64,000 bases of DNA from Escherichia coli (GTDB lineage Bacteria > Pseudomonadota > Gammaproteobacteria > Enterobacterales > Enterobacteriaceae), in NCBI RefSeq assembly GCF_003334355.1, contig NZ_QOWP01000018.1; one strand, written 5' to 3'. Positions 14,180 through 20,262 of this stretch are shown one piece after another; positions within the stretch are counted from its first letter, which is position 1; every line of letters begins with the position of its first letter. Position numbers and translations under genes: made by a program. The notes below the pieces were generated by a model. The model was not told the origin of the DNA, did not search any database, and worked only from the letters and a program-made list of their open reading frames with translations.

Positions 14180-14558
14180 AATAAATAGTATCCTGAAGGT
14201 GCATGTTGTTATCGATTTGCAACGAATGTTGTTTAATGTTGCAAACTGATAACTTTTTATTTTCACTTGGGAGAAAGGTGGGTGATCGAGGTATATCTTT
14301 TTCTCCTTTCGCTATACATCCTAAGGAGTATTTCGGCGTGAAATTTTGATTTATTTCACATAGAGTTAGTGGTTTTTTATTTATTTAATGGTTTTAAGTT
14401 TTTTAATTAATGTAATTACGAAATGACTCGCAGGTTTAAGTGATTTAATTGATTTAATGAATAAAATTTGCCACGATCATAATTAATATCTATGTATTTT
14501 GATTCAACATTTTAATTACATCCGTCAAAGAGGCTCGGGACAACCCGCAAGGAAAACA
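14180..14558. promoter_or_regulatory. Divergent citC / dpiB control region
   Basis: 379-bp very AT-rich spacer with reiterated TTAAT/ATTTAAT motifs between divergent citC and dpiB; expected site of DpiA binding. Confidence 0.4.
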
Positions 14559-16906: not shown

Positions 16907-18292
16907 TTACTTGCCTGTGACCGCTGCTGCCGTTCCTGGCACCATCAGCTCTGTAGCAACGATAACAATCACCAAACCAACAAGCACCGGTACCGAGGTG
17001 CGTTTTACGACTTCAAACGGCGAGATCTTCGCCATCCCGGCAACCGCAACGACTACGCCAGAAACGGGCGAAAGGGTACGGCCAAGGTTTGACGCCTGCA
17101 GCATCGGGATAGTCAAATACGCCGGGTTAATGCCGGAAGAGTGCGCCAGTTTCGGGATCATCTCAACAAACGCATAAAACGGCGCATTGCCTGAACCGGT
17201 CGTGACTGCCGCCAGCATTGTCAGAATCACCAATACCAGCATCAGGATGATACTCGCCGAACCAAACGAGGTAGCGATAGAAATCAGACTTTGAATAAAG
17301 CCGATGGTGCTAAGCCCCTGAGCGAATACCCCAGCGGCAACCAGCAGCATCACCACGTTAGCAAACGCATCTGCCATCCCGCGATAAGCCACTTCCAGAC
17401 CAGAGAAAACTTTCTGGGTATTAAAGCTGCGGAGGAACTCCAGAATGGAGGCAATCAGCATACAAATCACCAGAATAGTGATGATGTGTAATTGCGGACC
17501 CCATTTACCGTCAAAAATCAGTACACCGATGATCGGCGTGAACGGCAAAATGGCATAAAACGCAGGAGCAGTGGTGGTGATTTCACTGACATCTAACATT
17601 TCATGAGAGATGTGCTCTTTTTTATCCAGATAACGTTGCCAGAAGAAGTGGGCGATCGCCATGCCGATAATTGCAGCAATTGAGATAGGCAGCGTCGTTT
17701 TGAAGGCGAAGTCAATCAGCGACATTTCGGAAGCTTGCGCCGCCAGCACCACATCCCCTGAAGTCGGTGCGAGAATAATCGCCGCCGGGGAGGCACAAAT
17801 GGCAGCAGCTGCGCCACGACTGATACCAACGTTTACCATCACCGGAAATAGGGTTGCCATCAGCAAAACACCCAGACCGGTTGCGGAAGAGACGGCCAGA
17901 GACATCAGACAGGCGACAAAATAGGCGGCAATCATCAGCAGGTAAGGGGAGTTAATATACTGCAATGGTTTTGACGCCAGCTTGACCACCATATCATTCG
18001 CGCCGATATGGGTCATGTAAGCGGCAAATCCACACAGCATCATAATCATCATGCCGAGGTCGCCGCCGCGGCTCATTAGTAATATTTTAACGTATTCAAC
18101 GATATCCGTGGCGCTGTAGCCTGTTGAAGCCTGGCTGGACGGTAACACTTTGTGCCCCATAATGGCACTGATAATCAGCAATAACAGGCCACCGACAAAT
18201 AACACACCAGTGGCGGAATACCCTTTAATGATGTAGCGAGCTACACCCACAATAACCACAACCCCAATAAGGAGCTCAATGAATGTCAGCAT
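16907..18292 (-). CDS. dcuC: Anaerobic C4-dicarboxylate transporter DcuC
   Basis: 461-aa polytopic membrane ORF recognised as DcuC. Confidence 0.9.
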   Translation of the reverse strand: MLTFIELLIGVVVIVGVARYIIKGYSATGVLFVGGLLLLIISAIMGHKVLPSSQASTGYSATDIVEYVKILLMSRGGDLGMMIMMLCGFAAYMTHIGANDMVVKLASKPLQYINSPYLLMIAAYFVACLMSLAVSSATGLGVLLMATLFPVMVNVGISRGAAAAICASPAAIILAPTSGDVVLAAQASEMSLIDFAFKTTLPISIAAIIGMAIAHFFWQRYLDKKEHISHEMLDVSEITTTAPAFYAILPFTPIIGVLIFDGKWGPQLHIITILVICMLIASILEFLRSFNTQKVFSGLEVAYRGMADAFANVVMLLVAAGVFAQGLSTIGFIQSLISIATSFGSASIILMLVLVILTMLAAVTTGSGNAPFYAFVEMIPKLAHSSGINPAYLTIPMLQASNLGRTLSPVSGVVVAVAGMAKISPFEVVKRTSVPVLVGLVIVIVATELMVPGTAAAVTGK

Positions 18293-18880
18293 AATTTTTC
18301 CTGTCTCCAGGCCCCAAAGTAAATAATAAAAAATTCCTAAAGCTTAAGGAAAAAATATGCCCAATAAATTGGCGATGAATGCTGATTAAAATCAAGAAAA
18401 ACTGCCATTAAGACATTGAAGTTGCTGTTTTTATACATAGATAACAAAACGCATATTTAGCGGTTGGCAATTATCACATAATAATGTGTGCAAATTGATG
18501 GTGGATTGATGCAAATTTGTTAATTGCAATGGTGTTAGCTGCGGCTGTGCGCTCAAAAAATAATCTAATATGAGCATAGGTTGACGATATATATTATATA
18601 CTTCGTTAAGATGATTGTTGTATCTCGTTAAAAAATAAAATAATTTTTCCTTGATTGCATTTTGTCATCAAAAAAGACTTGGTTTTTCTTTTTTGACTAT
18701 TCCCATCGCAGAAAACGACGCATCATCTTTAATCGATGCGCGGAAATATTTAACTTGAACAAGCGGAAATAAATAGAGCAGCTATTCAGATTATTCTTTA
18801 TGTTGGGTCTATTAAGGTTATGTTAATTGTAGCTTTGCTATGCTAGTAGTAGATTTTTGATAAATGTTTTATGGTCACAA

Positions 18881-19441
18881 ATGAACGTGAGTAAATATGT
18901 CGCTATCTTTTCCTTTGTTTTTATTCAGTTAATCAGCGTTGGTAAAGTTTTTGCTAACGCAGATGAGTGGATGACAACGTTTAGAGAAAATATTGCACAA
19001 ACCTGGCAACAGCCTGAACATTATGATTTATATATTCCTGCCATCACCTGGCATGCACGTTTCGCTTACGACAAAGAAAAAACCGATCGCTATAACGAGC
19101 GACCGTGGGGTGGCGGTTTTGGCCTGTCGCGTTGGGATGAAAAAGGAAACTGGCATGGCCTGTATGCCATGGCATTTAAGGACTCGTGGAACAAATGGGA
19201 ACCGATTGCCGGATACGGATGGGAAAGTACCTGGCGACCGCTGGCGGATGAAAATTTTCATTTAGGTCTGGGATTCACCGCTGGCGTAACGGCACGCGAT
19301 AACTGGAATTACATCCCTCTCCCGGTTCTACTGCCATTGGCCTCCGTGGGTTATGGCCCAGTGACTTTTCAGATGACCTACATTCCGGGTACCTACAACA
19401 ATGGCAATGTGTACTTTGCCTGGATGCGCTTTCAGTTTTGA
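18881..19441 (+). CDS. pagP: Lipid A palmitoyltransferase PagP (outer membrane)
   Basis: ORF trimmed to Met9 ([14 protein letters not shown]), giving 186 aa; recognised as PagP/CrcA. Confidence 0.9.
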
Positions 19442-19615
19442 GACAAATGAAGTTTTAGTAACTTCTTTAAAATCAATAGCTAAAATAAGTAACATCAAAA
19501 ATAACGCGACTTTTATCACTTTTTAGTAAAGTTACACTGGACAAAGCGTACCACAATTGGTGTACTGGTAACCGACACAGCATTTGTGTCTATTTTTCAT
19601 GTAAAGGTAATTTTG

Positions 19616-19825
19616 ATGTCTAAGATTAAAGGTAACGTTAAGTGGTTTAATGAGTCCAAAGGATTCGGTTTCATTACTCCGGAAGACGGCAGCAAAGACG
19701 TGTTCGTACACTTCTCTGCAATCCAGACTAATGGTTTTAAAACTCTTGCTGAAGGTCAGCGCGTAGAGTTCGAAATCACTAACGGTGCCAAAGGCCCTTC
19801 TGCTGCAAACGTAATCGCTCTGTAA
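19616..19825 (+). CDS. cspE: Cold-shock-domain protein CspE
   Basis: 69-aa product [20 protein letters not shown] recognised as CspE; ORF-track start is an upstream GTG. Confidence 0.9.
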
Positions 19826-19844
19826 GATACGTCAGCAAGAATTC

Positions 19845-19874
19845 AAAACCCGCTTAATCAGCGGGTTTTTTTTG
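19845..19874. terminator. Bidirectional intrinsic terminator between convergent cspE and crcB
   Basis: aaaacccgc-ttaatca-gcgggtttttttt: stem flanked by A-run and T-run. Confidence 0.7.
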
Positions 19875-19878
19875 GTCT

Positions 19879-20262
19879 TTAGTGTGCGGTTGAGGCCGAA
19901 AACAGCCAGAATGCCAGTGCGGTCATGGCAAAAGACCCCAGAAGGTTGACGAAAACGTTCAGTAATGCCCAGCCAAAGCGGCCCTCTTGTAACAAAAACA
20001 CCACTTCTGCCGAAAATGTTGAGAAGGTTGTTAGACCGCCACAAAATCCGGTGGTGATTAATACTTTCCACACTGGATCAATGTTCGTCATCCTGCTGAA
20101 CCATGCGAATCCCATTCCTATGATGAATGCCCCAATCAGGTTTGCTGTCAGCGTCCCCAACGGAATCGCCTGATGCAGTGGGTTAAATCGCATACTTAAC
20201 AGCCATCTCGCCACGCTTCCCGTACCACCGCCAATAAAAACTGCTAAAAGAAGTTGTAACAC
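19879..20262 (-). CDS. crcB: Fluoride ion channel CrcB/FluC
   Basis: 127-aa four-TM ORF with GTG start; recognised as CrcB. Confidence 0.85.

Follow-up and report, generated by a model that had tools for sequence, protein, structure and literature searches.

The dcuC-pagP intergenic spacer of Escherichia coli as a probable bipartite divergent control region within an H-NS-bound, AT-rich tract

The intergenic spacer separating dcuC and pagP in Escherichia coli very probably represents a divergent control region of bipartite structure, situated in an AT-rich tract that is bound by H-NS. It was analyzed as part of a contiguous stretch of 64,000 nucleotides, referred to as the window. At the dcuC end, FNR binds an invariant box centred approximately 41.5 bp upstream of the predicted dcuC start and would recruit sigma70 RNA polymerase to this gene under anaerobiosis (class II activation). 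At the pagP end, a degenerate PhoP box is proposed to stand in for the -35 element and to end 12 nt before an extended -10. The pagP promoter would therefore require either phosphorylated PhoP (low Mg2+) or, in biofilms and late stationary phase, a lifting of silencing through SlyA or the RcsB pathway. The centre of the spacer (about 400 bp), together with the AT-rich 5' end of pagP, would then provide a platform for H-NS filaments holding both promoters low in aerobic, Mg-replete growth, and this central DNA would presumably matter through its composition. H-NS repression, its relief by SlyA/RcsB, PhoP activation and FNR control of dcuC are already published. Results obtained within this study add a sequence-level map tying the published data to coordinates (Table 1), a preference, based on conservation, for one of two candidate PhoP boxes, the class II geometry predicted at the dcuC end, and the observation that the inter-promoter DNA is a hot spot of polymorphism and insertion sequences (IS); the overall picture is unchanged. 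Palmitoylation of lipid A by PagP affects antimicrobial peptide resistance, innate immune recognition and biofilm survival, and silencing and induction of pagP are medically relevant for this reason.

Table 1. Features of the dcuC-pagP region in window coordinates.
Feature	Position	Strand	Remarks
dcuC-pagP intergenic spacer	18293..18880	.	588 bp, 31.5% G+C
dcuC	16907..18292	-	anaerobic C4-dicarboxylate transporter; transcription leads away from the spacer
pagP (crcA)	18881..19441	+	lipid A palmitoyltransferase; transcription leads away from the spacer
Predicted dcuC 5' untranslated region	18293..18347	-	about 55 nt, with GGAG/AGGA ribosome-binding site; from promoter geometry
Predicted dcuC -10 hexamer CATATT	18354..18359	-	from promoter geometry
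FNR box TTGATTTTAATCAG (plus strand CTGATTAAAATCAA)	18382..18395	-	one mismatch to TTGAT-N4-ATCAA
Hypervariable central block	18541..18740	.	cannot be aligned between E. coli and either other genera or cryptic Escherichia clades
Conserved block TTCAGATTATTCTTT	18785..18799	+	immediately upstream of the candidate PhoP box
Alternative PhoP-like match TCTTTA-TGTTG-GGTCTA	18795..18811	+	2 mismatches; phase shifted by 4 bp relative to the conserved box
Best-supported candidate PhoP box TATTAA-GGTTA-TGTTAA	18810..18826	+	3 mismatches; ends 12 nt before the -10
Predicted extended -10 TGcTATGCT of pagP	18836..18844	+	predicted start near 18851
Predicted pagP 5' untranslated region	18851..18880	+	about 30 nt; from the -10 position
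Published H-NS ChIP-chip region, aerobic MG1655	17151..20251	.	Myers 2013 Table S3
Published H-NS ChIP-chip regions, anaerobic MG1655	17691-18659, 18685-19384	.	Myers 2013 Table S3

The two genes form a divergent pair, and the bounds of the spacer are exact, since the minus-strand start codon of dcuC ends at position 18292 and the ATG of pagP begins at 18881. A sequence-only reading of this DNA had described a spacer of roughly 590 bp that is far more AT-rich than the flanking coding sequence, and this description holds: the G+C content of the 588 bp is 31.5%, as compared to 50.9% for dcuC, 46.9% for pagP and 50.9% for the window. The 588-bp stretch with the lowest G+C content of the window (31.0%) starts at 18313 and lies nearly completely within the spacer. 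AT-richness at the level of the spacer was observed for just 0.1% of all 588-bp segments, and all segments featuring at most 33.5% G+C overlap the spacer region. The A+T content thus clearly exceeds the neighbourhood average over several hundred base pairs, as is the case for H-NS-silenced regions. For comparison, intergenic regions of at least 40 bp were counted on the colinear 64 kb of strain MG1655. Within these 39 regions (median length 137 bp), the dcuC-pagP spacer is the longest, and its G+C content is located about 1.4 SD below the intergenic mean of 42.5 +/- 7.9%. Several shorter regions are equally AT-rich, such as citC-dpiB (31.2% G+C) and pagP-cspE (31.0% G+C) in MG1655, and the spacer is therefore unusual in length and composition together. 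The divergent citC-dpiB spacer (14181-14558 in the window, 378 bp, 31% G+C) is also situated within a published H-NS ChIP region.

The multiple A/T tracts mentioned in the sequence-only reading were recovered, and their enrichment depends on tract length. Runs of at least four A/T residues occur 18 times in the spacer (30.6 per kb versus 10.1 per kb across the window), which does not exceed the number in dinucleotide-preserving shuffles (P = 0.28), whereas runs of at least five are enriched (12 versus 6.4 in the shuffles, P = 0.005). Helical phasing of AA/TT steps in the spacer was not significant (P = 0.09). Annotated features within the spacer are absent from RefSeq K-12, an Rfam search of the spacer returned no match at E <= 1, and searches of the spacer for tandem and other repeats yielded nothing beyond chance. 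The spacer is identical base-for-base to that of MG1655, and the surrounding region is colinear with this strain (about 99.6% identity across the first 37.8 kb of the window). Published data for MG1655 were placed on the window by subtracting 636,899 from U00096.2 coordinates, and this offset was verified on the FNR site.

Silencing of pagP by H-NS, which the sequence-only reading had proposed along with H-NS ChIP profiles as a check, is borne out by published data. Based on the mapped coordinates, the H-NS ChIP-chip regions reported for aerobic and anaerobic growth cover the spacer as well as the AT-rich start of pagP (Myers 2013). Furthermore, Chalabaev 2014 describes an 18-fold increase of pagP-lacZ expression in an hns deletion strain that was complemented by plasmid-borne hns, and a screen for pagP derepression that yielded hns insertions. 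According to the same study, SlyA relieves H-NS repression of pagP in biofilms independently of PhoP and EvgA, and three SlyA sites are proposed at pagP. RcsB was found to act upstream of SlyA (Szczesny 2018). Matches to the SlyA consensus TTAGCAAGCTAA with three or fewer mismatches were not found in the spacer, nor was TTA-N6-TAA. Likewise, motif scans of the spacer for the H-NS high-affinity site, RcsB/RcsAB, CRP, ArcA, EvgA, IHF and sigma54 revealed nothing convincing. In genomic SELEX, binding of RpoN holoenzyme and NtrC was located at 655760 within the spacer; the GG-N10-GC sigma54 motif is absent from the spacer, so this peak has no motif to explain it.

With these properties, pagP resembles H-NS-silenced promoters that are counter-silenced by PhoP/SlyA, such as those of Salmonella pagC and ugtL and of the E. 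coli K5 capsule, regarding its AT-rich upstream DNA, its occupancy by H-NS, its pronounced derepression upon loss of hns and the role of SlyA as anti-silencer. However, pagP differs from this class in being an ancestral core gene in a conserved context and not horizontally acquired DNA. Moreover, its induction in biofilms is PhoP-independent, and SlyA consensus sites were not found in the spacer.

The spacer had previously been regarded as the upstream region of pagP. This is correct regarding regulation of pagP; however, the dcuC-proximal quarter harbors an FNR-dependent promoter that had been missed. The FNR box CTGATTAAAATCAA shows the strongest conservation anywhere in the spacer: in an alignment of 13 species, the half-sites CTGA / AAATCAA are invariant, with variation at T124, which is the fifth base of the left half-site, and in the central spacer. 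An FNR-type motif by itself is not significant (five occurrences in the window versus 2.8 expected by chance), and the assignment is therefore based on conservation and ChIP data. The identical 14-mer was both predicted and ChIP-bound as an FNR site at 655281 (U00096.2), with FNR peaks mapping to window positions 18399 and 18441 (Myers 2013). The same study reported an anaerobic sigma70 ChIP-seq peak at 655235, corresponding to window position 18336, and FNR activation of dcuC with approximately 20-fold higher expression under anaerobic conditions.

On the dcuC strand, the FNR box is followed by 22 nt and the predicted -10 hexamer CATATT (18359-18354), at which the 13-species alignment features the conserved block AATGTGCC. 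This distance would place the centre of the box at -41.5 relative to a predicted start near 18347 (+/-3). Measured from the predicted -10, the putative promoter would have the geometry of class II FNR-activated promoters, with which dcuC shares a near-consensus FNR box 22 nt upstream of a -10-like hexamer, FNR occupancy in ChIP and FNR-dependent, anaerobic expression. In contrast to this class, the dcuC promoter resides within an H-NS-enriched region in which FNR occupancy is unaffected by deletion of hns/stpA. The FNR peak at dcuC was of the same height in the hns/stpA mutant (Myers 2013), and hence H-NS does not visibly occlude FNR at this position. Since dcuC was flagged 'TSS not in peak region' in that study, a mapped dcuC start site may lie elsewhere. 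Two further sequence elements at this end were considered and discarded. The 18-bp near-palindrome TTCCTAAAGCTTAAGGAA (18334-18351) deviates from an EvgA box by three mismatches and lacks conservation within E. coli itself. The dcuC ribosome-binding site (18289-18302) is complementary over 14 nt to positions 18347-18360; this match is E. coli-specific, overlaps the predicted -10 and is probably due to chance.

PhoPQ activation of pagP, the second regulatory claim of the sequence-only reading, agrees with the literature. The E. coli literature describes pagP (crcA) as PhoP-activated with a degenerate box that has three mismatches and is located about 32 bp from the start site, and PhoP-dependent transcription and PhoP binding at the E. 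coli promoter are reported there, with Eguchi 2004 and Minagawa 2003 cited as sources. Harari 2010 gives a box-to-start distance of 32 bp for E. coli crcA and of 44 bp for Salmonella. No clear PhoP box had been recognized by eye, and a scan for the direct repeat led to the same result: close matches to (T/G)GTTTA-N5-(T/G)GTTTA are absent from the spacer, the best ones having two to three mismatches. Such matches occur at chance level, with 194 in the window and seven in the spacer, one of which is located in the dcuC leader. Because they are this common, assignment of a PhoP box is based on conservation and position, and the K-12 sequence by itself does not suffice to identify the box. Both candidates listed in Table 1 are compatible with the descriptors given in the literature (three mismatches, 32 bp from the start site), and a full-text literature search for the candidate strings retrieved no paper printing them.

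Conservation points to the box at 18810-18826. In an alignment of 83 enterobacterial sequences (roughly 20 genera) over the 140 bp upstream of pagP, the core conserved in at least 90% of the sequences consists of GTTAAG, 5 nt, ATTnA, 12 nt and TGnTA, and three positions of the TTGCTA block (G575, T577 and A578) do not vary among 13 species. The upstream half of the box (18809-18815) corresponds in the alignment to the half-site TGTTAAG of the Salmonella pagP box, which was footprinted using phosphorylated PhoP, and the E. coli extended -10 matches the position of TATTAT, the -10 of Salmonella. Divergent E. coli alleles retain or even improve the box, as for TGTTAA in the O157-like allele L083. 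Moreover, a sigma70 ChIP-seq peak at 655742 corresponds to window position 18843 and thus coincides with the predicted extended -10 (Myers 2013). Alternatively, PhoP could use the K-12-specific two-mismatch box TCTTTATGTTGGGTCTA at 18795-18811, with a -10 at about 18823-18829 and a start near 18835. This match is the closest one to (T/G)GTTTA-N5-(T/G)GTTTA on the pagP strand, and relative to a strict TGTTTA repeat it also has three mismatches, in agreement with the literature. However, this match lacks conservation between genera, and other E. coli alleles carry degraded versions of it (GGGCTG in L083; TCTTCA...GGGCTA in L082), and the invariant G, T and A of TGnTA, the sigma70 peak at 18843 and the alignment of the footprinted Salmonella half-site with 18809-18815 are better compatible with 18810-18826, which makes use of TCTTTATGTTGGGTCTA rather unlikely. 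Accordingly, the box at 18810-18826 is favoured, with moderate confidence, as the probable PhoP box of E. coli.

The favoured box can be compared with Salmonella enterica pagP ('architecture IV', Zwir 2012), an orthologous gene in the same dcuC-pagP-cspE context. The two share the TGTTAAG half-site and the TGnTA(T) -10, which align with E. coli 18809-18815 and 18836-18844. In Salmonella, however, the footprinted box CTGTTTATAGTTTGTTAAG is shifted upstream by one helical turn, to a distance of 23 nt from the -10, and E. coli K-12 has no good half-site at this position. The conserved E. coli pair TATTAA/TGTTAA, 12 nt from the -10, corresponds to architecture I/II. This shift between the two species agrees with the difference between 32 and 44 bp reported for their box-to-start distances (Harari 2010).

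Regarding activity of the pagP promoter, sigma70 occupancy increased from 37 to 366 (approximately 10-fold) under anaerobic conditions, and pagP mRNA was 3.4-fold higher (Myers 2013). This anaerobic rise coincides with shrinking of the H-NS region from 3.1 kb to two shorter blocks; the oxygen effect on pagP is not discussed in Myers 2013. Within the examined part of the Cappable-seq list (Ettwiller 2016), no plus-strand start site is located in the spacer, which is consistent with a pagP promoter that is silent in standard growth. A sigma70 consensus scan returned fewer promoter-like sites in the spacer than in shuffled sequences (1 versus 3.8). Immediately upstream of the candidate PhoP box, the TTCAGATTATTCTTT block contains the sequence TTCnGATTnTT common to Escherichia, Citrobacter and Salmonella. 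As an RcsAB-type site, this block is a weak pattern match with two mismatches, and it was not assigned. Further upstream of the pagP promoter, GCGGAAATA constitutes a direct repeat 23 bp apart (18740-18748 and 18763-18771) that is conserved among E. coli alleles and not in other Escherichia species.

In order to place the spacer in a taxonomic context, 80 loci encoding PagP relatives were taken from species-representative genomes. The gene order dcuC–pagP–cspE is found in most genera, Escherichia, Citrobacter, Salmonella, Enterobacter, Klebsiella and Raoultella among them. Spacer lengths range from about 290 bp in Klebsiella/Raoultella through 403 bp in Salmonella and about 462 bp in Citrobacter to 558-588 bp in Escherichia. 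In every genus with the simple dcuC-pagP arrangement (nothing inserted), the spacer has 29-39% G+C, though its sequence is not conserved. The 13-species alignment contains only two conserved islands, one per end, which coincide with the two promoters; the approximately 400 bp between FNR box and PhoP box are unconserved in sequence between genera. PagP of E. coli and of cryptic Escherichia clades (L002, L003) is 87-88% identical, as compared to 98% for the neighbouring DcuC; the rate of evolution of pagP and the DNA upstream of it is therefore much higher than that of dcuC.

The turnover of the centre leaves some room for a neutral explanation, in which the AT-richness of the central 400 bp or so results from AT-biased mutation of unconstrained DNA, H-NS binds there incidentally, and sites near the promoter suffice to silence pagP. 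This explanation is possible but considered the less probable one for the centre. It is in line with the failure of the centre to align between genera, with a divergence of about 52-57% even from cryptic Escherichia clades, with a within-species diversity about twice the level of third codon positions, with the compact spacer of Klebsiella/Raoultella, and with A/T tracts lacking significant helical phasing; given its fast evolution, the centre may have no function at all. However, neutral drift does not readily account for a G+C content held in the same low range in every genus despite sequence turnover, for H-NS ChIP enrichment that is continuous across the spacer (Myers 2013), or for the excess of A/T runs of at least five over dinucleotide expectation. 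Neutrality of the centre is compatible with the main explanation for both promoter ends, namely a bipartite control region within an H-NS-bound tract.

Within E. coli, the central 200 bp (18541-18740) are hypervariable. Diversity among ten alleles amounts to 0.113 in this block, whereas third codon positions in the genes on either side show 0.046-0.060, corresponding to a difference of about twofold; the alleles were chosen across the range of spacer identity, which inflates the diversity of the spacer, and the flanks originate from the same genomes. Central haplotypes are uncoupled from the flanks: one strain deviates from the window by 0.36% in dcuC and pagP and by 17% in the centre, another one by 2.7% in the flanks and 1.5% in the centre. 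At least three common haplotype families, 13-17% apart, were distinguished. At a threshold of at least 95% identity, the K-12 type is present in 3,277 of 5,426 complete genomes (about 60%), the L082 type in 1,029 (about 19%) and the O157-like L083 type in 455 (about 8%). Cryptic clades are no closer to one E. coli haplotype than to another, the centre differing by about 52-57% from E. whittamii and E1V33.

Insertion sequences were also encountered in the spacer. In the natural isolate X14-3 (L086), an IS1 is flanked by a 9-bp duplication of 18396-18404, adjoining the FNR box, and in the natural isolate MINF_8D (L085), a deletion bounded by IS1 has eliminated dpiBA and dcuC along with the spacer as far as 18730. 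In E. coli, bgl, fucAO and flhDC represent IS-activated H-NS-silenced loci, and the IS5 and IS1 insertions in the dcuC-pagP spacer may be comparable. 'Switched' intergenic alleles, i.e., horizontal regulatory transfer, likewise occur in this species. The divergent spacer haplotypes uncoupled from nearly identical flanking genes resemble such alleles; however, the switch is limited here to about 200 bp between the promoters, the promoter elements being almost untouched. For IS5, recurrent insertions in the spacer were described in MG1655 lines evolved to kanamycin resistance (Hoeksema 2018). Speculatively, the central 200 bp may act as a recombining 'silencing cassette' setting strain-specific H-NS silencing thresholds, and hence thresholds for lipid A palmitoylation and dcuC expression, with IS insertions as a second route; this idea is given a low probability. 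The hypervariable, recombining central block as such is the one mildly new point.

Escherichia spacers are 125-300 bp longer than those of Citrobacter, Salmonella and Klebsiella, the extra columns fall into the hypervariable block, and the spacer attracts IS1 and IS5. An origin of the extra DNA from a mobile-element remnant or a horizontally acquired insertion is favoured by these features but very improbable: the spacer is single-copy per genome, a homologous element with recognisable ends was not encountered elsewhere, the central block had no match in phage collections and its 'plasmid' matches were only chromosome-sized or chromosome-derived E. coli records, and neither terminal inverted repeats nor tandem repeats beyond chance were detected in the spacer.

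Very unlikely, too, is an unannotated small RNA or protein encoded in the centre, one candidate being the predicted S. flexneri sRNA Ssr31. Ssr31 (pagP/dcuC) was listed as RT-PCR positive (Wang 2016); its primers map to 18622-18641 and 18791-18810, placing Ssr31 at about 18516-18810 on the pagP strand, and a hairpin at 18716-18742 mostly retains pairing via G-U changes. However, the RT-PCR as described does not distinguish the strand, and the Ssr31 stretch spans the hypervariable block. On the plus strand, the fold of this stretch is no better than that of shuffled sequences (z = +0.49); on the minus strand, its advantage over them is only weak (z = -1.63), and a covariation term of -0.42 kcal/mol indicates essentially no covariation among alleles. 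Moreover, the lack of an Rfam match in the spacer, sigma70 peaks that number just two and lie at its ends (Myers 2013), and the lack of a plus-strand start in the examined part of the Cappable-seq list (Ettwiller 2016) render a small RNA in the spacer unlikely. Open reading frames in the spacer comprise 35-48 aa; those on the plus strand start with TTG, the single ATG-start frame lacks a Shine-Dalgarno sequence, and single-base indels among E. coli alleles break these frames.

Outside the spacer, the window differs from MG1655 at 37827-37864 and 42240-44600. An MG1655 segment of about 8 kb (ybeQ-ybeR-djlB-ybeT-ybeU-djlC-hscC) plus an IS5D copy is absent from the window, and about 2.2 kb of the window are without match in the MG1655 stretch compared. 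Downstream of pagP, an Rfam match to the cspA thermoregulator at 19431-19873 on the plus strand (124 bits; gathering score 78) extends over the leader and coding sequence of cspE, in keeping with a CspA-family gene.
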